Origin: Bacteriovoracaceae bacterium
GTDB taxonomy: Bacteria; Bdellovibrionota; Bacteriovoracia; Bacteriovoracales; Bacteriovoracaceae
DNA length: 64,000 bases
Assembly (NCBI GenBank): GCA_018649885.1
Contig: JABIHA010000113.1
Location: 1-64,000 of the forward strand
Direction: 5' to 3'
The translations under genes were made by a program, and so were the position numbers. The notes beneath the pieces were generated by a model that ran no database searches, was not told the origin of the DNA, and was given only the letters and a program-made list of their open reading frames with translations. Below are positions 8,816-21,827 of the stretch, in pieces (position 1 is the first letter of the stretch; each line of letters starts with the position of its first letter).

Positions 8816-9421
8816 TTAGGCAGTTGGGTTATTTGTCATATATCCCATCATACCAATATTTCTTGCTCTCTTAATTTCAGTCGTTGCCTTTCTTTGATAC
8901 TTTGAAGACAGGCCTGTAATTCTTTTTGGAGAAATTTTTCCAAATTCGTTGATTAGCCATCTGTAAGTAGTTTGGTACTTCCAATCTGGCTCAACTTTAT
9001 TGGCCTTAAACCAACAAGTTTTTCTTCTAGCAAATCTTTTACGATCTTTTTCAACATCGCGATCAGACCTTCCTTCAGCATCAACTTGTCCAGTAAATGG
9101 ATTCTTGTAATCTTTGAGCATTTTTTCTGCTGAGATTTCTTTTTTAATGATGAGAGAGTTTAGACAGTCTTCATTGATTTTAAATCGCCTTTCGAGCTCT
9201 TTAATAACCTTTCCATCTTCACAAGAATAGATAAAGTAGACATAGCGTCCCCGCCTATTGCCTCTTTTGTTGGGTTGAGAAAAAATTCGTGCTCCCCAAT
9301 CGTCAGTGAGCAGGATTTCTCCTCCAAATTCTTTAATGACTTCACTGACTAGGCCTTTAAAAGCCTCAAATGCAGTTTCATCAATTTCGGCACGCAAAAC
9401 GATAGCCGCTTCATAAACCAT
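8816..9421 (-). CDS. rpsF-rpsR: Fused 30S ribosomal proteins S6-S18
   Basis: N-half S6 (YEAAIVL, DDWG, GRYVY, ELERRFKINE); C-half S18 (RRKTCWF, DWK, GKISPKRITG, YQRKATTEIKRARNIG); single ORF. Confidence 0.92.
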   Translation of the reverse strand: MVYEAAIVLRAEIDETAFEAFKGLVSEVIKEFGGEILLTDDWGARIFSQPNKRGNRRGRYVYFIYSCEDGKVIKELERRFKINEDCLNSLIIKKEISAEKMLKDYKNPFTGQVDAEGRSDRDVEKDRKRFARRKTCWFKANKVEPDWKYQTTYRWLINEFGKISPKRITGLSSKYQRKATTEIKRARNIGMMGYMTNNPTA

Positions 9422-9626: not shown

Positions 9627-9650
9627 GTCATAACGGTGAGGTCGCAAAAA

Positions 9651-10433
9651 ATGAGTTTCAAAGACAATCAAAAGCAATATTTAAAGGAACTTAGAGAAGG
9701 TGAAACAGATGAATTTTGGGACAAAGTTGCCCTAAAAGGCGCGCGAGCGTTTGTCTGGAAAACTGGACAAGAATCGCCTCACAGTCTTGATGTTTCAGTG
9801 CAGGATAATTCTCAAAATGAAAGCATAAATATTGATGTGCCATCTCTATTACAAAATATATTTAGAGAAGATTACAAACAAAAATTGATTTATTTTAAAC
9901 TTGTCACTGCGAGCGATGATCAATTTTTTACTCAGGGTCAAATTAGTTGCAGCAGCTGCGAAGCTGGCGACAAATTCAGCTTTCATCCTAGCGGGCAATT
10001 TTACAAAGCTGTTAAAAGAGAAAATTGCAGATACCAAATTGGAGGAGACGAAAAAGTCATTGTTAATCTCGCAGGTTTTGACTACGAGTGCTTTGATATT
10101 TCAGCAGGTGGCCTAAGCTTTTTACTACAAATGAATGAGTCCGAGCTTTTCGATAAAGGCACTGAGTACAAAAATGCACCCATTAAGTACAACCAAAAGA
10201 GATTTAATATTGATGATTTAAAAATTGTGGCAATCTTGTTTGTAGACATGACAAAGAACAAGAGCAAAGACCATGTCAAAATAGACACCCACGCCAAAGT
10301 TTGCGTTCAGTTCGATAAAATTAATAACCAAGTTCAAGACGACCTATGGCTTGCGGTCAACAAAAGTCTTCAGTCTCAAATGTCAGTTGACATGAAAAAG
10401 AGGCAAGAAGAAATGGAAAAAAAAGCAAGCTAG
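9651..10433 (+). CDS. PilZ-domain (c-di-GMP receptor) protein
   Basis: RxxxR (RENCR) and DxSxxG (DISAGG) motifs; GAGG RBS before ATG 9651. Confidence 0.8.
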   Translation: MSFKDNQKQYLKELREGETDEFWDKVALKGARAFVWKTGQESPHSLDVSVQDNSQNESINIDVPSLLQNIFREDYKQKLIYFKLVTASDDQFFTQGQISCSSCEAGDKFSFHPSGQFYKAVKRENCRYQIGGDEKVIVNLAGFDYECFDISAGGLSFLLQMNESELFDKGTEYKNAPIKYNQKRFNIDDLKIVAILFVDMTKNKSKDHVKIDTHAKVCVQFDKINNQVQDDLWLAVNKSLQSQMSVDMKKRQEEMEKKAS

Positions 10434-10663: not shown

Positions 10664-13108
10664 ATGAAAACTTTACGCTGGATCGTCCAGTCTCAATCTG
10701 GATTTTCCTTAATCGAAATCATGATCGTCTCTGCAATGATGGCCGGTGTGGCCATGGTGTCTACCAAAATGTCGAGCAACCAAATGAAAAACGCCAAAAC
10801 CATCGAAAAGAAGTTTGGTGTTATTCAAGAAGCTGAGTCACAAAAGTTCCTACTCTCAAAGTCTGTGAACTGTAATAAGACTCTTGAAAACGTCGATTTG
10901 GATGACCTCGGTGGTGGTGCAGAAATAGATGTTCCGAGTCTGATGAAATCTGATGGTGTCAGTAAGTGGACACCTGGAACTGACTATGACAATGGAAATA
11001 TTAACTTAGAATCAGTTAAGCTCACAGGTGATTTTGAGGTGGACCCTGACAATCCGCTATATGGTGATATCAATTTACGAGTTAACTGGAAGAAAAATGG
11101 AAGATTTTATGGCCCCGAGAAGGTTTATAAAGATATCCCTCTCAGAGTTACAGTAGACGCTAGTAATGTAATCCAAAATTGTTATACAACTTCTGGTGGT
11201 GATGGTGGTGCCTCGCTTTGGCAAGAACATGTCGATGGAATTTATTATTCAGATGCCATAGCAGCTAAAGTGACAATTGGAAAAGATCCAAGTGCTGCTG
11301 TTGCAACATTTGAGGTCCTTGGCAACGCTGCTATCGGAACAAATTCCAGTGTCACTACCACAACAGGATTGGCTTTTGGGGGATCTTCAAGTGCGGACTA
11401 TAGCCTTGCCCTTGGTGAGAGGGCCAGTGCATCTGATGATGCTTCCATTGCAATTGGTAGTAGTCTTAACGCAGGCTATGTCGCCGCCAGCGGTGATGGC
11501 TCTACTGCTATTGGTTCTGCCAATACCTGGAACCCACATGCATCTTCCCAGTACAATAAGGGGGCCCTTGCCACAGGGGATGGATCTGTCGCCATAGGTG
11601 GAGCCGGTTATGATCCAACAACTACCGCGTGGCCATCAATTGCTCAAAGAGAAGGAGCAAAAGCTTCAGGGGACTACAGTATTGCCATGGGAGTAAGGTC
11701 GGAAGCAGAAGAGATGAACTCTATTTCCATTGGTGTTGTCTCTTGGGCGGGATCGAATTCAGCTGAAAGTGGAAATAGGCCCTACAGTATTGCCATTGGC
11801 CACAATTCCTACTCTATGGACTCAAAAACAATTGCACTCGGTTACCGTTCCTATGCAGGTGAAGCAGGTACTAATGACAGTGATACAGACAATGCTAGTG
11901 CAATTGCTATTGGAGAAACCGTCTATGCGTATGATAAATACTCAATTGCTATTGGTTCATCTGCTGTAACTGGAAACTCTGATGAAGACCCAGGAGCTGT
12001 TGGCGAAGGTGATGAATCAATTGCCATTGGGCGCTCTTCAAGGGCCTACGACAAAAGATCTATCGCCATTGGTCCCAGTTCGACTGCCGGTAAAAATACA
12101 ATTGGCACCGATAAGCAAAATGGTATTGCCATTGGTTATAGCTCAAGTTCGACAGAATCTAATACAATTGCCATTGGCCAGAGTGCAAGCTCTTCGTCAT
12201 CAGATGGCATTGCTATTGGGCAAAGTAGTGTAGCCTCTCAATCAGCTGCAATTGCTATTGGAAAAGGCGCTGTAGCTGATGAAATTTATTCAATTGTTAT
12301 AGGAGACTCAGCTGATGTCAGTGACTCTTACGGTATAGCCATTGGTTATGGTGCCAACGCTGCATTTGGAGGTGCCTATGATGGACCTATTGCCATTGGT
12401 AAAGATGCAAAATCGGCTGGTCGAGGAATAGCCATTGGTTATGAAGCTGAAGCAGAAGCAGGAAGTTACGTGATTGGTTATAAAGCAGTCGCTAAGGGAG
12501 AGCTCCATATAGCAATTGGGGGAGATATCACCCACGCTAACTCCGATCGAAATATTGTTATTGGCTACGGGGCCAAAATTAGCTCAAATGTTGACGAATC
12601 AATGGTGATCTCCAGTGATTGGGGCGCAAGTGTTGACGTCACCTCGAGTAATAAATTCTTAGCACATTTTGATAATGGCTTTGATTTTTGTACAGGTAAT
12701 ACTGCCGACCCTTGTTCAACAAAAATGACTATTAGCTCTACTGGTAATGCAGCTATCACTTCAGATAAAAATAAGAAAACACGTTTTGAAAAAGTAGATC
12801 CAGAAGAGTTTGTAAACCGCTTTTTTGATTTAGATATCTTCTGGTGGAACTACAAAACAGATCTAGAGGATAAAGATAGGCATGTTGGACCTATGGCCCA
12901 AGATTTTAAGAAAGCTTTTGGTACTTACGGAAAAGAGACGATGATCAGCCAAATGGATATGAGAGGTGTTAATATGCTGGGGATCAAAGGTCTTGCAATA
13001 AAAAATAGAAAGCTTGCAGGAGAGGTTGAAGAGCTTAGGGCCGAAAATGATGATCTAAGGGTGAGGCTTGAAAGAATTGAATCAATTCTAGAGAAACTAG
13101 ATAAATAA
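10664..13108 (+). CDS. Prepilin-anchored trimeric fibre adhesin 1 (pilin N-terminus + YadA-head repeats + peptidase S74 chaperone)
   Basis: G|FSLIE prepilin motif with hydrophobic helix; many S/A-I-A-I-G repeats; SDKNKK...WNYK...HVGPMAQD and terminal coiled coil. Confidence 0.85.
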   Translation: MKTLRWIVQSQSGFSLIEIMIVSAMMAGVAMVSTKMSSNQMKNAKTIEKKFGVIQEAESQKFLLSKSVNCNKTLENVDLDDLGGGAEIDVPSLMKSDGVSKWTPGTDYDNGNINLESVKLTGDFEVDPDNPLYGDINLRVNWKKNGRFYGPEKVYKDIPLRVTVDASNVIQNCYTTSGGDGGASLWQEHVDGIYYSDAIAAKVTIGKDPSAAVATFEVLGNAAIGTNSSVTTTTGLAFGGSSSADYSLALGERASASDDASIAIGSSLNAGYVAASGDGSTAIGSANTWNPHASSQYNKGALATGDGSVAIGGAGYDPTTTAWPSIAQREGAKASGDYSIAMGVRSEAEEMNSISIGVVSWAGSNSAESGNRPYSIAIGHNSYSMDSKTIALGYRSYAGEAGTNDSDTDNASAIAIGETVYAYDKYSIAIGSSAVTGNSDEDPGAVGEGDESIAIGRSSRAYDKRSIAIGPSSTAGKNTIGTDKQNGIAIGYSSSSTESNTIAIGQSASSSSSDGIAIGQSSVASQSAAIAIGKGAVADEIYSIVIGDSADVSDSYGIAIGYGANAAFGGAYDGPIAIGKDAKSAGRGIAIGYEAEAEAGSYVIGYKAVAKGELHIAIGGDITHANSDRNIVIGYGAKISSNVDESMVISSDWGASVDVTSSNKFLAHFDNGFDFCTGNTADPCSTKMTISSTGNAAITSDKNKKTRFEKVDPEEFVNRFFDLDIFWWNYKTDLEDKDRHVGPMAQDFKKAFGTYGKETMISQMDMRGVNMLGIKGLAIKNRKLAGEVEELRAENDDLRVRLERIESILEKLDK

Positions 13109-13111
13109 ATT

Positions 13112-13144
13112 ATATAAGTGCCTTCCTAAGGAAGGCACTTATAT
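13112..13144 (+). terminator. Perfect 15-bp hairpin after fibre gene 1
   Basis: ATATAAGTGCCTTCC-TAA-GGAAGGCACTTATAT. Confidence 0.7.
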
Positions 13145-13370
13145 CTAACAACTCAATAAATTTCCTTTTCAATCTACTCTTATTTTTTTGCCATCACTAG
13201 TGGTCAGTTAATTAAATTTAAACCAGTTTCCTATAGAGTATCTACTCATCACATCTTATTAATATTACAAAGAAAACGACCTTAATCCGAAACTTAACCC
13301 ACTGGATACACATGAAATGCTCGATAATGGACGATAGAGAAGTACTAAAATGTTAACAAGGATTTTGACC

Positions 13371-15785
13371 ATGAAAACTTTACGCTGGATGGTCCAGTCT
13401 CAATCTGGATTTTCCTTAATTGAAATCATGATCGTCTCTGCAATGATGGCCGGTGTTGCCATGGTGTCTACCCAAATGGCAGGCAACCAAATGAAAAATG
13501 CCAAAACCATCGAAAAGAAATTTGGTGTCATTCAAGAAGCTGAGTCACAAAAGTTCCTACTCTCAAAGTCAGTGAACTGTAACAAGTCTCTTGAAGGTAT
13601 CGATTTAGACGATCTAGGAGGTGGGGATATTGACGTCCCTAAACTTGTAAAATCAGATGGGGTAATATCCACAGATAAGTGGGTGGTCGGAAATGATTAT
13701 GACAATGGAAATATCAATTTAGATTCCATTAAATTAAACTCGTTTGATGTGGACCCTGACGAAGCTCTCTATGGTGATGTCAATATGAGAATTAACTGGA
13801 AAAAACTGGGGAAATTTTACGGACCAGAAATGGTTTTTAAAGATATTCCTCTCAGAGTCACTGTGGACGCTGATAATGTGGTCCAGAACTGTTACACAAC
13901 CTCTGGTGGTGATGGTGGTGCCTCTGTCTGGCTAGAACATGTAGATGGAATTTATTATTCCGATGCCATAGCAGCTAAAGTGACAATTGGGAAAGACCCA
14001 AGTACCGCAGTTGCAACATTTGAGGTCCTTGGCAACGCTGCCATTGGGACCAACTCCAGCGTCACGGCCACAACGGGGTTTGCCATAGGCGGATTATCAA
14101 GTGCTGATTATGGACTTGCCCTTGGAGAGAGGGCCAGCGCATCTGATGATGCTTCCATTGCAATTGGAAGTAGTGCTGATGCTGGCTATGTAGCTGCCAG
14201 CGGTGACGCCTCTGTAGCAATTGGCTCGGCTAATACCTGGAACCCACACGCATCATCTCCTTACAACAAGGGTGCTCTTGCCACAGGGGATGGATCTGTC
14301 GCCATAGGTGGAGCAGGCTATGATCCAACGCTTTCCGCGTGGTCATCAATTGCCCAAAGAGAAGGAGCACAAGCTTCTGGGGACTACAGTATAGCCATGG
14401 GTGTAAGATCTGAAGCCGAAGAAATGAATTCAATTGCCATTGGTGTTGTCTCATGGGCAGGATCAGATGCAGGTGAAACTGGAAATAGACCTTATAGTAT
14501 TGCCATTGGTGCCAACGCCTATTCTAATGACTCAAAAACAATTGCACTTGGATACAAATCTTATGCTGGTGAATACGGGGCCAACGATAGCAATACCGAT
14601 AATGCCGGTGCTATTGCAATTGGAGAAACGGTCTACGCAAAAGATAAGTATTCAATTGCCATAGGATCTTCTGCAGTGGCCGGGAACTCCGGTGAAGACC
14701 CAGGAGCAGTAGGTGAAGGTGATGAATCAATTGCCATTGGACGTTCTTCAAGGGCCTACGATAAAAGATCAATCGCCATTGGTGCAAGTTCTACTGCAGG
14801 TGGAGCTACAGTTGGCAGTGATATTCAAAATGGAGTGGCCATTGGTTATAGTTCTTCTGCAACAGGTGCAAATAGTGTTGCCGTAGGACAAGACTCAAAT
14901 GGTGGCGGTAGTTATGCTGTTGCAGTGGGTGACGGAGCAACCGCTGGTTCTTCAAGAGGCATTGCGATCGGAAGAAATGCTTCCGTTACAGACAGCTACG
15001 GAATTTCTATTGGCTCAGGTGCAGTAACAGGAAATGGTGGAGCTTCGTTTGGCGAGGAATCAATCGCTATTGGACGAGATTCCGTTGCCTCAAATGAGCA
15101 AACGATTGCTATCGGATTCGAAGCTGAGGCAACAGGAATTGATGGCGTCTCAATTGGGTATAGTGCAAAAGCAAGCGCTTATTCACTTGGTGCACTCGGA
15201 GAAGCAACAGGGGTTGGATCAGTTGCTATAGGCCGTGGTGCTAAAGCTGAACATGATTACTCAATGGTTGTTAGTCCACAATTTTTACTTTTTCTTTCAC
15301 CTGATGTTCGATCAAGTACAACAGAGCAATACACTGCTTACTTTGATAATGGTTATCGATTTTGCACCAATAGCGATATTGCTGACCCATGTGGACAAAG
15401 GTTTTATATTTCTACCTCAGGAACCTATGGAACAATTTCTGATAGAAATAGAAAAGATAAATTTATAGACATTGATCCTGATGAATTTTTCAATAAAATT
15501 TTGGAAATAGATGTCCAAAGATGGAATTACAAAACAAGTATGGACCCAAAGGATCAACACATTGGACCAATGGCCCAAGATTTCTACAAAATTTTTGAAA
15601 TCGGTGAAGATGACAAAGTCATTGATGGAGTCGATATTGACGGGGTTAACTTAATGGGACTCAAGTCTGTTGCTCTCAAAGAAGTTGAGCTTGAAAATAG
15701 AGTGGTTGAATTAGAAAGTGAAAATGCGAGTCTTAAATCAAGGCTTGAAAGACTAGAATCAATTGTTGAAAAACTAAGTAAGTAG
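13371..15785 (+). CDS. Prepilin-anchored trimeric fibre adhesin 2 (paralog of 10664-13108)
   Basis: Same G|FSLIE motif and YadA repeats; SDRNRK...WNYK...HIGPMAQD; near-identical N-terminal half. Confidence 0.85.
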   Translation: MKTLRWMVQSQSGFSLIEIMIVSAMMAGVAMVSTQMAGNQMKNAKTIEKKFGVIQEAESQKFLLSKSVNCNKSLEGIDLDDLGGGDIDVPKLVKSDGVISTDKWVVGNDYDNGNINLDSIKLNSFDVDPDEALYGDVNMRINWKKLGKFYGPEMVFKDIPLRVTVDADNVVQNCYTTSGGDGGASVWLEHVDGIYYSDAIAAKVTIGKDPSTAVATFEVLGNAAIGTNSSVTATTGFAIGGLSSADYGLALGERASASDDASIAIGSSADAGYVAASGDASVAIGSANTWNPHASSPYNKGALATGDGSVAIGGAGYDPTLSAWSSIAQREGAQASGDYSIAMGVRSEAEEMNSIAIGVVSWAGSDAGETGNRPYSIAIGANAYSNDSKTIALGYKSYAGEYGANDSNTDNAGAIAIGETVYAKDKYSIAIGSSAVAGNSGEDPGAVGEGDESIAIGRSSRAYDKRSIAIGASSTAGGATVGSDIQNGVAIGYSSSATGANSVAVGQDSNGGGSYAVAVGDGATAGSSRGIAIGRNASVTDSYGISIGSGAVTGNGGASFGEESIAIGRDSVASNEQTIAIGFEAEATGIDGVSIGYSAKASAYSLGALGEATGVGSVAIGRGAKAEHDYSMVVSPQFLLFLSPDVRSSTTEQYTAYFDNGYRFCTNSDIADPCGQRFYISTSGTYGTISDRNRKDKFIDIDPDEFFNKILEIDVQRWNYKTSMDPKDQHIGPMAQDFYKIFEIGEDDKVIDGVDIDGVNLMGLKSVALKEVELENRVVELESENASLKSRLERLESIVEKLSK

Positions 15786-17870: not shown

Positions 17871-20800
17871 CTAGGGAGTATATTTATAAATTAGTCTTGA
17901 GCTGCTACTGAGGACATAGATATTGCCGCTCTCGTCCATGGTCAGGCCATAAAGGGCAAAAGTATCATTAAGGCTTGCAGGAAAGGCAATGCTTGTTTTA
18001 TTACAGGTACCATCAGTAAAGGTTGTATCATAGCACCTGAGTGCGCCACTTTTGAGGTAATAAATTTTTCCAGTGGATTCTTCCCAAAGAAAGTGTCCCA
18101 TACTCCCACCCCAGGTATCATTTAAAAGTGTGCCTAGCTCGGTGGGGATTCCAGAATCAGGATTTTCGATGTACCGAATAGTCTCTTTTTCATGAAAGAG
18201 CAGCCTTGGAGTTGTAGCATCATTGTCAAACTGCAAATACATTGAGGCATACCCAATGGCACTTATTCCACTGTATGCTGACACAGTGTTGAGTGCAGTG
18301 CCTGAGCTATCAGCACTAACAACATTAGTTGCTCCATCACCTAAGATTTTATAAATTTTCCCGTCAGATCCATTTACTCGGTGGATACCACCAAACCTGT
18401 GGTAAGTGTTTGTACTTCTTGTATAAAAATTGCCGTTATCATCAATTACCCAGCCACCATAATACCCATAGGTTGTTGGCTTATAGTCTGTAGCAGTGTC
18501 ACCATCAGAAGCCGTATGTAGTCCTGCAGATGCTCCCGCCAGAAAGCCACTGATAGAAAGGTCAGCATTGACCTTGTATACTAGCTGCTGGCTTGTCCCA
18601 AAAATAATGAGACCGTTATTATCAAAGGCAAAAGGTCCACCGGCCATTTCACCGTGTCTTAAGCCTAAGAATTGAGTACTTCCAAAAGTTGTGGGAGCAA
18701 GTGAGGCATCAATTTGATTGCCTCCCATATTGTGAATAATATCTGTTGCTGGGTCTATGCGGCCAATGACTGTGGCTTGGCCATCACTCCAATATAGTCC
18801 TCCAGGAAGATTGGCTTGGTTGGGAGCTGTCGTTTTTTTCCAGTTTAAAAATCGAACTTTTCCAAACCTTGCCAGTAACTTATCTCCCCCATCCCCATTG
18901 AAGGCCAATTGCCCAGCAAAGGTTTGAAGCTTATTATTAGAGTCAATATAGCGAAGTCTTGCTGCTTGTGGTGAGTTGTTATACGGGCCATCGGCAAAAC
19001 CAATAGCCCCACTTGCTCTTGTCCAGGGATGTCCCATATTCGTGCAAGCTGTACCTGGAGCAGCAACAACATCATTGTCACTACAGCTGATCATACCAGC
19101 AGTTGCGGACCTTTGACCTTTTGTCACCTGAATCGCCACTTCATCGTAATCGTTGGAAGATGTTGGAAGAAATTTATATATTGCTCCCCATCTTGAACCA
19201 TAGATGTAACCATCCGCTGATGAATATGCCATGCTACGATAAGAATTTTGAGGACTACCATTAGTCTTATATACGACTCCATTGATTAACTTGTAATCAT
19301 AGGCACCAGATTTATTTGACACATAAAGAGCACTATTTGATGGACTGTAAAAAAACAAGGTAGTGGTAGGCCATGACTGATTGGTCAAGCCTGTGGCCAG
19401 TGGATCATCGCCATCCGAAGGATAAGCATCACTGCAATCACCAAATGCAGTCGTTGCGGTTCCCGCAGAGCCATCTCCATTTTGCGCAATTTTTCTTATA
19501 ATATATCCCATAGTATTAGCATTGGAATTAACTGCATTACAAACGACTAGAAAATAAATATCATTATTGGCCGGGTTAATTGTCAGTTGAGAAGTGTAGT
19601 GTATAAAAGTATTGGCAGCAGTCGTGTCGGTTAAGTAATCTGAGCCACCTCCAGCATACTCACTAATAGTATCTGCGCTTGTATCAATTTTATAAATTCT
19701 CATATTGGTTGCTAAGGTACTATTGCCATTGCTTCTAGCTGTAATATAGATATTATCACTTGTATCTTTTGTGATTCCATGGACTATGCCAACTTTTGCA
19801 CCTGAAACAGGACCAGGAACACCAGATACTGCCGATTCGGCAGTATCAAGATAATTGTCAATCACACCAGTAGAAGCGGTAATTTTTCTCATATATGTTG
19901 CATCAGAGATGTAGATATCTCCATTAGATGTTTCAATAATTCTGTGATCAGGGGCCTTATCTTGAAAGGGACCAATATAGGCCGAAAGTGCTGAGTCACC
20001 ATTTCCATTGGCATCATTCCCCGCATAAATCTCCCATCCAAGTGTATTCATCAGCTGAGAGTATTGAGTTGCGGTATTTCCATTTCCATCTGTCACAACT
20101 AATTTGAGTCTAAAAAATGCAGTAGTGGGGGCCAAGAAGGAAACTGTAGAATGGGTCCAACTAAGAATCTCACCACTCCCACCAGTTGTATTGGAACCAT
20201 CTGTTGTTGAATCCCCTACACCTGCGGCTGCAAGACCTAGATTTGTAAAATCAATATTATCAGTTGAGTAATATATTTCCACGGCATTTGTCGCAAGCCC
20301 TTCACCATCGGCAACTGTAAAGCTTACTGTCACTGGTGCACTAAGAGCAAAGGTTGTCCCACCTCCACCGTCATCAACAGTAAGTGCTGTAAAAGATGGT
20401 GCCGTCCCCGCAGAGAGTTCCACTGAGTCTGTATCCACTAAACTTGTACCGGCAGCTGAATTCGTTGTTATGGTAGAAACATTACCAACACTATCTTTCC
20501 CCCAAGCACAGATTTTTTTATTTCCGGCAACGGGTGAGGTGGTAAGAGGGAGTGAGGTAGGAGATGCTGAGTATACGACCCAACCAGAATCGGCATAGTC
20601 GTTTTGACAGTCGGCATCTACACTCTCGGCCACTTTAACATGTGTAAGCCCAATACCAGCATCAGATGCAGTTACATTAATATTAATATCCCGCAAAGTA
20701 ATGATCCCATCACTTGGAGTTCCTTGGTTGTCTATAATTCCTGTTGCGCTTACAACTGGGTTGGTAGAGTCAACAGTAAAAGCTGTGGTATTTTCATCAG

Positions 20801-21827
20801 TACCTATATTGCCATAGGAATCCGTAAAGGAAACTCTCAATTTAACATTTGTTGAATCAATTGAGGGCACAGTCCAGGATATACTTTCCGCCTGAGCACT
20901 CAGACTTCCATTAATGGCGTTAGCAAGTGTTGAAGCCGGAGAGATTGCACTCCAGCTAGTTCCACCATTTGCGGAGTACTCAATTGTATAAACAAGAGTG
21001 TTATCAGCGTGTGTATCAGTTGCCTGCCAGTTTATGGTGATGCTATCGCCACCCTTGTTACTCCCATAACTCCCAGTAACATTAATTGTTGGAGCCGTTG
21101 TATCTAGAGTAAAATTGACAGCAGCATCTTTAGTGAATGCGTTGGTGGCCAAGTCACTCATGGCAACACGCAAAAGCATTTGAGAGCTATCAACACTACT
21201 TGGATAGGTCCAGTTGTATGAGTAACTACTTTGAGCACTAACTGCTGACACGCTCGTAAGTGCGCTCCAAGATGTTCCATTATCACTTGAATAGGTTAGA
21301 TCAAAACTTGAGGTCTCATCAAAATTTAATTCTGTAACCGACCAACCCAAACTAAATACACCAGGTCCGACAGTGCCTGAAGGCTCATTAACCCAACTAA
21401 GCACTGGGTTAGTTGAATCGATCGTTGCCGTTTTTAATGAACTAGCAGATGTGCCGTTTTGGTAACTAATTACTAAACGAAGAACAATTTCAGAATCTAT
21501 AGAAGGTATTGGGTTCCAAGTATATTTAGTTTGTGTGACCAAAATAGATTTGGTCAAAAGATTCCACGTTGTACCACCATCATCGGAGTAGTGTAGAACT
21601 GCAGATTTAAATTGTTCAGTATCCCCTAAACTAAAACGAATATTAGTACTTCCACCACCAGGAAGATAAGCCGTTGGTTGACTTAAGGCCCCCTGAACAA
21701 TATCTCCACCAAAAGTTTCTCCGAGATCTCCAGAGCCCTCACCAGCACTAAATTGGCACGACATCTGAAAAATCATCAGAAGCCCGAGTATATATAAATG
21801 AGTAAGTCTAGAAACTCCACACTTCAT
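17871..21827 (-). CDS. Large surface lipoprotein: Ig-like/Asp-box repeats plus NHL/beta-propeller C-terminus
   Basis: Signal ending ...QMSC; repeated YSxDxGxxW and DxTxP; GDGG-type NHL motifs; Ser/Thr/Gly rich. Confidence 0.75.
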   Translation of the reverse strand: MKCGVSRLTHLYILGLLMIFQMSCQFSAGEGSGDLGETFGGDIVQGALSQPTAYLPGGGSTNIRFSLGDTEQFKSAVLHYSDDGGTTWNLLTKSILVTQTKYTWNPIPSIDSEIVLRLVISYQNGTSASSLKTATIDSTNPVLSWVNEPSGTVGPGVFSLGWSVTELNFDETSSFDLTYSSDNGTSWSALTSVSAVSAQSSYSYNWTYPSSVDSSQMLLRVAMSDLATNAFTKDAAVNFTLDTTAPTINVTGSYGSNKGGDSITINWQATDTHADNTLVYTIEYSANGGTSWSAISPASTLANAINGSLSAQAESISWTVPSIDSTNVKLRVSFTDSYGNIGTDENTTAFTVDSTNPVVSATGIIDNQGTPSDGIITLRDININVTASDAGIGLTHVKVAESVDADCQNDYADSGWVVYSASPTSLPLTTSPVAGNKKICAWGKDSVGNVSTITTNSAAGTSLVDTDSVELSAGTAPSFTALTVDDGGGGTTFALSAPVTVSFTVADGEGLATNAVEIYYSTDNIDFTNLGLAAAGVGDSTTDGSNTTGGSGEILSWTHSTVSFLAPTTAFFRLKLVVTDGNGNTATQYSQLMNTLGWEIYAGNDANGNGDSALSAYIGPFQDKAPDHRIIETSNGDIYISDATYMRKITASTGVIDNYLDTAESAVSGVPGPVSGAKVGIVHGITKDTSDNIYITARSNGNSTLATNMRIYKIDTSADTISEYAGGGSDYLTDTTAANTFIHYTSQLTINPANNDIYFLVVCNAVNSNANTMGYIIRKIAQNGDGSAGTATTAFGDCSDAYPSDGDDPLATGLTNQSWPTTTLFFYSPSNSALYVSNKSGAYDYKLINGVVYKTNGSPQNSYRSMAYSSADGYIYGSRWGAIYKFLPTSSNDYDEVAIQVTKGQRSATAGMISCSDNDVVAAPGTACTNMGHPWTRASGAIGFADGPYNNSPQAARLRYIDSNNKLQTFAGQLAFNGDGGDKLLARFGKVRFLNWKKTTAPNQANLPGGLYWSDGQATVIGRIDPATDIIHNMGGNQIDASLAPTTFGSTQFLGLRHGEMAGGPFAFDNNGLIIFGTSQQLVYKVNADLSISGFLAGASAGLHTASDGDTATDYKPTTYGYYGGWVIDDNGNFYTRSTNTYHRFGGIHRVNGSDGKIYKILGDGATNVVSADSSGTALNTVSAYSGISAIGYASMYLQFDNDATTPRLLFHEKETIRYIENPDSGIPTELGTLLNDTWGGSMGHFLWEESTGKIYYLKSGALRCYDTTFTDGTCNKTSIAFPASLNDTFALYGLTMDESGNIYVLSSSSRLIYKYTP

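Follow-up and report, generated by a model that had tools for sequence, protein, structure and literature searches.

Introduction

In the minor pilin CofB (PMC6048534), an N-terminal pilin domain is followed by beta-rich C-terminal domains through which the protein forms homotrimers that initiate the pilus. A secreted protein docks onto CofB, and both CofB and TcpB are encoded in type IVb pilus operons. Here we analyse two tandem genes in a 64,000-nucleotide stretch of DNA from a Bacteriovoracaceae bacterium (assembly GCA_018649885.1, contig JABIHA010000113.1, positions 1 to 64,000 of the forward strand; hereafter the window). Each encodes a prepilin-type N-terminus, a pilin-like head, a roll of YadA-head repeats and a C-terminal S74 chaperone. 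The best reading of this architecture is a modular pilin that would work like a CofB-type trimeric tip, with a rod taken from autotransporter heads and a chaperone taken from phage fibres.

With slightly better than even confidence, we propose that the gene products are homotrimeric, CofB-like adhesive minor pilins at the tip of a type IV filament, for which the type IVa pilus (T4aP) is the likeliest candidate. Support comes from a class III signal, a pilin-like head, a trimer model, an S74 Ser-Lys dyad, the lack of an autotransporter barrel, and the presence in the host genome of PilD, PilB/C/T, PilMNOPQ and PilA.

Two described systems of predatory bacteria are relevant for comparison. The mosaic adhesive trimers (MATs) of Bdellovibrio bacteriovorus (Caulton 2024, PMC10769870) are trimeric fibres with a conserved base and a variable tip. 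They are defined by a signal peptide followed by a conserved beta-rich N-terminal domain of ~130 residues, a definition that in the accessible text makes no mention of pilins, and 13 of the 21 end in an S74 domain with the SDxxxK motif, for which self-cleavage has been demonstrated in Bd3182. On type IV pili, the authors only remark that an interplay with them might be interesting. The Kil system of Myxococcus xanthus (PMC12075869) has interchangeable minor-pilin tips with variable domains that are tied to prey range. Kil differs from the genes described here in being a Tad system with heteromeric tips, and the accessible text of that study mentions no S74 fibre.

An earlier note on this DNA knew of no characterisation of the architecture. 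This stands as far as experiments go, since our literature search, with most subscription journals outside its reach, turned up no experiments on a pilin-S74 fusion; the architecture had, however, already been counted. We take IPR008640 to be the YadA-head entry. Dataset S1 of Raynaud 2021 (PMC8179133) lists the order IPR012902-IPR030392 in 29 proteins and IPR012902-(IPR008640)n-IPR030392 in eight (4+3+1), which is the domain order of our two genes. In its accessible parts that survey of modular pilins counts these proteins without characterising them, and takes S74 to denote 'peptidase activity' rather than a chaperone for trimerisation. The eight proteins with IPR008640, whose rows name no organism, may correspond to the headless lineage described below.

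Prepilin signal and pilin-like head

Gene 1 (P0001, 10664..13108) encodes 814 residues arranged as prepilin leader, pilin head, neck, YadA-type roll, tip segment and S74 domain with coiled coil; gene 2 (P0002, 13371..15785) encodes 804 residues with the same architecture. All coordinates are those of the window and lie on the + strand unless stated otherwise. The two are co-oriented paralogues with an overall identity of 68%.

Both N-termini read MKTLRW..QSQSG|FSLIEIM, with a hydrophobic 21-mer that contains Glu5. In gene 1 the basic leader of 13 residues (10664..10702) runs to Gly(-1), and the predicted PilD cut lies at G|F. The prepilin-type N-terminus proposed in the earlier note is borne out in both proteins by TIGR02532, which scores 19.7 bits for gene 1 and 19.8 for gene 2 against a cut-off of 16.3. 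The note had also suggested three Pfam profiles as a check, and these split: YadA_head matched with low E values and Peptidase_S74 scored above its cut-off (values below), whereas N_methyl was detected beneath its own (17.3 and 17.5 versus 21.2).

The pilin module of gene 1 (10703..11188, residues 14-175) comprises a long alpha1 helix with Glu5, an antiparallel beta-sheet and a Cys70/Cys173 pair; that of gene 2 (13410..13898, residues 14-176) pairs Cys70 with Cys174. An AlphaFold model of the gene 1 module, built with a 138-row alignment, has a mean predicted local distance difference test (pLDDT) of 91.9 and shows a helix of ~50 residues followed by the sheet. Across the 138 aligned heads C70 is invariant and C173 is conserved in at least 90%, in keeping with the pilin-sized, Cys-paired domain that had been noticed by eye. 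When the model was compared with known structures by VIA-align, pilins made up eight of the ten top rows (Z 4.6-5.4, root-mean-square deviation 3.0-4.5, 72-110 residues aligned), including TT_C0855, ComZ, K122-4, PilV and others, with GspK best at Z 5.4 in a tie with type IV pilus pilins. This model-based signal is coherent but weak. No CofB, TcpB or PilV-shufflon chain stood out in the 50 VIA rows shown for the head, an absence that does not point to a different fold; a Shufflon_N cluster in the Atlas, at 0.76, is a lead only. Grafted onto the pilin are YadA_head and S74, modules that are not specific to type IV pili, as expected of modular minor pilins.

A neck and YadA-type roll predicted to trimerise

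C-terminal to the head of gene 1 lies a neck (11189..11338, residues 176-225) of phage-fibre- or MAT-like strands, followed by a YadA-head-type beta-roll of ~26 repeats (11339..12598, residues 226-645). The roll of gene 2 (14049..15266) differs from that of gene 1 beyond ~14810. Pfam YadA_head matches with E values of 3e-33 (gene 1) and 5e-47 (gene 2), so the repeat-rich roll of the earlier note holds. The strict pattern [SAG][IV][AS][IVLM]G occurs 14 times in gene 1 and 18 times in gene 2, compared with a mean of 0.2 across 1000 shuffles and maxima of 2 and 3, respectively. When the pattern is loosened, each protein has 26 repeats at a spacing of mostly 14 residues. By sequence profile, the roll matches the autotransporter heads of YadA (1p9h), BpaC (7o23) and BoaA (3s6l) with E values from 7e-15 to 6e-4, and the full-length monomer model matches the BpaC and BoaA heads by fold (7o23, E 1.3e-7). 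In the neck region, the family profile matches MAT tip structures (8ond at E 2.7e-4, and 8oml).

To model the fibre, three copies of residues 14-340 were used, and the score was 0.80 compared with 0.00 for the best of three controls. Of proteins solved as pairs, 20 of 30 attained the mark for this score, as did 1 of 23 solved as single chains; these counts apply only roughly to three copies. The runs agreed in at least 79% of contacts with a pLDDT of at least 73. Confident contacts span residues 185-316 and are densest in the neck, while the pilin heads are free and make none. The model thus supports trimerisation of neck and roll and agrees with the trimer proposed earlier, although solved YadA-head trimers may account for the pass. 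Modelled in this way, the proteins resemble CofB and TcpB in trimerising through their C-terminal domains with the pilin heads left free; they differ in having an S74 domain and a YadA roll and in sitting outside a pilus operon. At 0.48 nm per repeat, the homotrimeric fibre would be ~20 nm long.

An S74 chaperone with an intact Ser-Lys dyad

The S74 domain of gene 1 (12761..13105) begins with S700-D-x-x-x-K705 and ends in a coiled coil, a piece of 13.6 kDa if released, so that the pilus would carry subunits of 70 kDa; in gene 2 (15438..15782) the motif is S690-D-x-x-x-K695, again followed by a coiled coil. Peptidase_S74 (PF13884) scores 34 and 36 bits against a cut-off of 22. The S, D and K of the motif are invariant in all seven full-length homologues, and Ser and Lys stand five residues apart in both proteins, as first noticed. 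Because the SDxxxK motif is present and the reaction is known for Bd3182 and for phage S74 proteins, the domain probably removes itself from the fibre. Once this predicted cleavage was done, the segment between roll and chaperone in gene 1 (12599..12760, residues 646-699, with Cys676 and Cys684) would form the free end, and its sequence suggests a distal tip.

The shared features raise the question of whether these are simply MAT fibres or trimeric autotransporters whose signal peptide has been misread. S74 and neck-type strands are held in common with MATs, and the left-handed roll repeats of YadA-head type with autotransporters. However, YadA_anchor (PF03895) is absent from both proteins and was not found in the host genome (G000, 92% complete; an E. 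coli control was positive), so that there is no stalk-anchor barrel, and the polarity is reversed, with an N-terminal anchor and a C-terminal S74 domain. The N-terminus is a 50-residue helix plus pilin head, not a beta-rich MAT domain after a signal peptide, and profiles made from two sets of relatives' signal-peptide-type S74 fibres (12 and 11 sequences) matched neither gene product at E <= 1. We therefore consider this explanation very improbable: the proteins are neither MATs nor autotransporters, and the lack of a barrel agrees with the earlier note.

The paralogues share a base and differ in their tips

The identity of the two proteins changes in a sharp step, from 86% over residues 1-480 to 46% over residues 481-814, with divergence setting in near residue 480 of gene 1 (~12100). 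The corresponding values fall from 83% to 55% for nucleotides and from 94/160 to 18/55 at fourfold third positions. Past residue 600, gene 1 is nearer to the metagenomic homologue P0004 than to gene 2. Judged from these sequences, recombination is a better explanation of the mosaic than selection on the binding face, because the chaperone, which would be discarded, diverges as much as the tip. Trees of the distal part have weak support and long branches, so that a 3' swap and a 5' homogenisation are not separable, and likewise the donor of the tip. With the same base and different tips, the paralogues are most likely interchangeable adhesive pilus tips.

The host genome and its export machines

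The window encodes ribosomal proteins S6 and S18 as a fusion (8816-9421, - strand), a fusion common to 47 relatives. Where its relatives are named (5 of 48 rows carry a taxon or order), they belong to Halobacteriovorax and Bacteriovoracaceae and share 43-50% identity with the window's protein; the host is therefore Bacteriovoracaceae-like. The organism is uncultured, and we assume from kinship that it is a predator.

As expected of a Bdellovibrionota host equipped to display such proteins, G000 contains a T4aP locus (pilBTC, pilA, pilD and pilMNOPQ by reading of open reading frames, ORFs), a complete type II secretion system (T2SS), Tad-type loci (two with a secretin), four secretins in all and one PilD above cut-off. 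Both genes lie outside the T4aP, T2SS, Tad and PilD loci, and they are the only S74 matches and the only YadA_head matches in the genome. A relaxed class III scan gave 35 hits, among them the five T2SS pseudopilins (G, H, I, J, K) and four pilins of the Tad locus; apart from PilA, the remaining clear prepilins all belong to the family that shares the pilin head of genes 1 and 2. Judged by sequence, this family is the candidate set of T4aP minor pilins.

These machines also allow another route, in which the trimer would cap the T2SS pseudopilus or a Tad pilus, be pushed out once and stay on the surface or be shed, with the pilin module serving as an export tag. The host has the complete T2SS and two Tad-type secretin loci for it, GspK is the best structural row for the head (tied, as noted), and B. 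bacteriovorus has a PilD that, co-expressed in E. coli, acts on PilA as well as on the Tad pilin Flp1 (bioRxiv 10.64898/2026.07.08.737194). We nevertheless regard this route as fairly unlikely, as the T2SS comes with a full pseudopilin set (G, H, I, J and K), the Tad locus has its own small pilins, and G|FSLIE differs from the Tad-type motif at contig C73. It is by this elimination, with T2SS and Tad loci owning their minor pilins, that we prefer the T4aP.

A search for known T4aP tip components did not change this picture. PilY1 (PF05567) went unmatched both in G000 and across 41 family genomes, a result that is uninformative because the positive control was silent everywhere; the accessible text of PMC13190605 and PMC6060248 contains no statement on a Bdellovibrio PilY1. 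The single weak PilX_N match in G000 is a hydrolase.

Ten or so further orphan genes of G000 carry the same pilin head with varied C-termini, many ending Cys-rich (contigs C4, C24, C42, C43, C84, C103, C127, C128, C132 and C143; L064-L073), among them a copy of only 64 residues on C127 and one lacking the signal on C103. The C-terminus of the family member at C132:81016-82650 (L069) resembles by eye a Hint/intein-type self-splicing domain, a second kind of self-processing module. Separately, C146:1-1404 and C96:7000-8883 are pieces of a long repeat-rich fibre, probably of lipoprotein type, broken at contig ends and ending without S74; its N-terminal domain matches the signal-peptide S74 fibres of relatives (E 6e-37).

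Distribution of the pilin head and of the fusion

A close-homologue search with residues 1-200 returned only the proteins of genes 1 and 2 (2 of 998 candidates). With HMMER, the pilin head identifies a large family of 306 representatives at 50% clustering, of which 150 were listed and 137 aligned, 13 partial or odd matches being left out. Gly(-1) is present in 136 of the 137 and Glu5 in 94. S74 was found in 24 of 132 family rows scanned and YadA_head was listed in none, a scan that included the query fragment and left out six long YadA-bearing members for size. The pilin-head profile matches in 22 of 24 same-family genomes, in 5 of 16 more distant ones and at 13 places in G000, where a short match may also represent an ordinary pilin such as PilA.

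Fusions of pilin and S74 were seen in 8 of the 41 genomes examined, with 16 genes in total. All 14 outside G000 keep SDxxxK and have 0-1 YadA motifs, so that among the eight genomes only G000 has YadA rolls. In five of them (G000, G010, G016, G021 and G024; G016 is 66% complete) the S74 matches found are all on pilins. Forms with YadA repeats are rare, with five more full-length homologues (39-48% identity) and the more distant P0216. Two other arrangements were seen among the relatives. One locus (L031, G016:C141) has six tandem pilin-S74 fibre genes of 870-930 residues, several lacking Glu5 and none with a YadA roll. Four others (L079, L080, L081 and L082, in G003, G009, G023 and G011) have conserved overlapping triplets of pilin-family genes of ~330, 265 and 345 residues, suggestive of a heterotrimeric tip complex.

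Beyond this family, a scan of named genomes by full-length alignment, driven by S74 words, yielded 92 S74-ending ORFs at the best 72 loci, whose hosts include Bacteroidota, Verrucomicrobia and Chloroflexi. The same small-residue repeats recur in many of these ORFs; none of the 92 has a prepilin motif, and no pilin-bearing relative was found at these loci. One of the loci recorded, on an Oceanospirillales contig (L104), has four tandem signal-peptide proteins with YadA-like repeats and a C-terminal S74 domain instead of a barrel. Among 115 further matches, eight have a prepilin motif, and in seven of the eight the pilin head is missing and the helix runs straight into the neck. This headless prepilin-YadA-S74 lineage (P0226, P0240, P0243, P0246, P0261, P0286 and P0288) is possibly from Melainabacteria: in a 92-member Atlas cluster (score 0.79, a lead) with N_methyl in 88%, YadA_head in 93% and S74 in 100%, the top phylum is Melainabacteria, on three records. 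We infer that the fibre module is general and that its fusion to a prepilin may have more than one origin.

Genomic context of the pair

The likely start of gene 2 is ATG 13371; we prefer it to the in-frame ATG 13350 because the 20 bases 5' of 13371 are identical to those 5' of 10664. Directly 3' of the gene 1 stop lies a terminator-like hairpin of 15 pairs (13112..13144, listed on the - strand but symmetric). A promoter scan found 12 sites versus 13.8 expected. Contigs in three of three DNA runs (from three studies, one of which may be the source) span the junction between the 3' end of gene 1 and the 5' end of gene 2, and the tandem is therefore not an assembly artefact. The stretch matches marine and seawater metagenomes (20 listed, 8 of them with at least half of the words). 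In one metatranscriptome, a sample found via the same stretch, contigs cover both genes and the rpsF-rpsR gene; we do not claim expression because DNA carry-over is possible.

Two other features of the window were noticed. The ORF directly upstream of the pair (9636-10433, + strand) has PilZ-like motifs by eye, with no Pfam detection and outside the 16 PilZ matches. Further downstream, 17871-21827 (- strand) encodes a putative lipoprotein of 1318 residues with Ig-like, BNR and beta-propeller-type repeats, all weak as Pfam matches, which is a possible surface adhesin.

Discussion

We propose the following sequence of events for the two proteins. As in established pilin biology, alpha1 would anchor the prepilin in the inner membrane with the remainder in the periplasm. 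There, the S74 domain would gather three chains, roll and neck would zip up, and S74 would cut itself off at Ser700 or Ser690 of the observed motif. PilD would trim the 13-residue leader at the G|F site, leaving N-methyl-Phe14 as the first residue. The three pilin modules could then initiate a filament in the manner of the CofB trimer, and the growing pilus would push the fibre out via the secretin, which would stand in for the missing beta-barrel. Finally, the distal roll and tip would bind a surface, with the two mosaic paralogues providing two tips on nearly the same base.

Several observations weigh against the filament-tip model. The documented homotrimeric tip pilins belong to type IVb pili, whereas T4aP normally have a PilHIJK/PilY1 tip (PMC10191384). 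The pair are orphans without a pilus locus, their neighbours being ribosomal-protein genes, dnaB and an RNase G-like gene, and the neighbours of the relatives' pilin-family members vary too. On the structural side, Foldseek found nothing for the pilin head at E <= 0.001, and the VIA Z of 4.6-5.4 falls where a common arrangement can score. Contacts of alpha1 in the trimer model are sparse and occur between two copies only. The S74 region has a pLDDT below 50 in the monomer model and no sequence match in the PDB. Moreover, the headless lineage suggests that a prepilin helix alone may be enough, as a membrane anchor.

This last point leads to an alternative in which the class III helix is a triple inner-membrane anchor only, and the fibre remains in the periplasm or in vesicles of predator origin without ever joining a filament. 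It would fit the separation of the pair from pilus genes and the existence of the headless lineage, and MAT fibres were first seen in a vesicle proteome (PMC10769870). An anchor, however, would have no need of a conserved, disulfide-pinned head or of Gly(-1) in nearly all family members, and an adhesin fold in the periplasm would lack an obvious outside ligand. We consider the anchor-only explanation unlikely, and retain the T4aP tip as the preferred reading.

What a pilus tip of this kind would bind is a separate question, for which the prey recognition put forward in the earlier note is only one candidate answer. We judge prey and non-prey surfaces about equally likely, each falling just short of an even chance. 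Attachment to particles, biofilm matrix or eukaryotic surfaces, which is compatible with display at a tip, would be in line with the roll and S74 being common on ordinary signal peptides in Bacteroidota, Verrucomicrobia and others (among the best 72 loci) and with the same three domains in the Melainabacteria-linked cluster, itself a lead. YadA rolls occur in only one of the eight fusion genomes and are therefore no core part of predation, which for this uncultured host is in any case assumed. On the other side stand the Bacteriovoracaceae-like nature of the host and the pairing of divergent tips with a common base, which fits the mosaic logic of MATs and Kil tips.

The value of these observations is tempered by the fact that the architecture was already counted in a database survey and that the organism is uncultured. 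They nonetheless bear on prey recognition by predatory Bdellovibrionota and on what is mounted at the tips of their type IVa pili. A pilin doubling as an S74-folded trimeric fibre would combine adhesion with retraction in a single protein, and an S74-pilin tip would extend homotrimeric initiation at the tip beyond type IVb pili. More tentatively, and with considerable doubt, we suggest that Bacteriovoracaceae and their kin tip T4aP not with the canonical PilHIJK/PilY1 but with dispersed, interchangeable modular pilins, about a dozen in G000, which would have one shared base and swapped C-terminal fibres, some of them S74-trimerised. If true, this modular-pilin repertoire would be a second, retractable mosaic system of prey-capture adhesins beside the MATs, and in genomes like G000 it would hold the only S74 fibres found.

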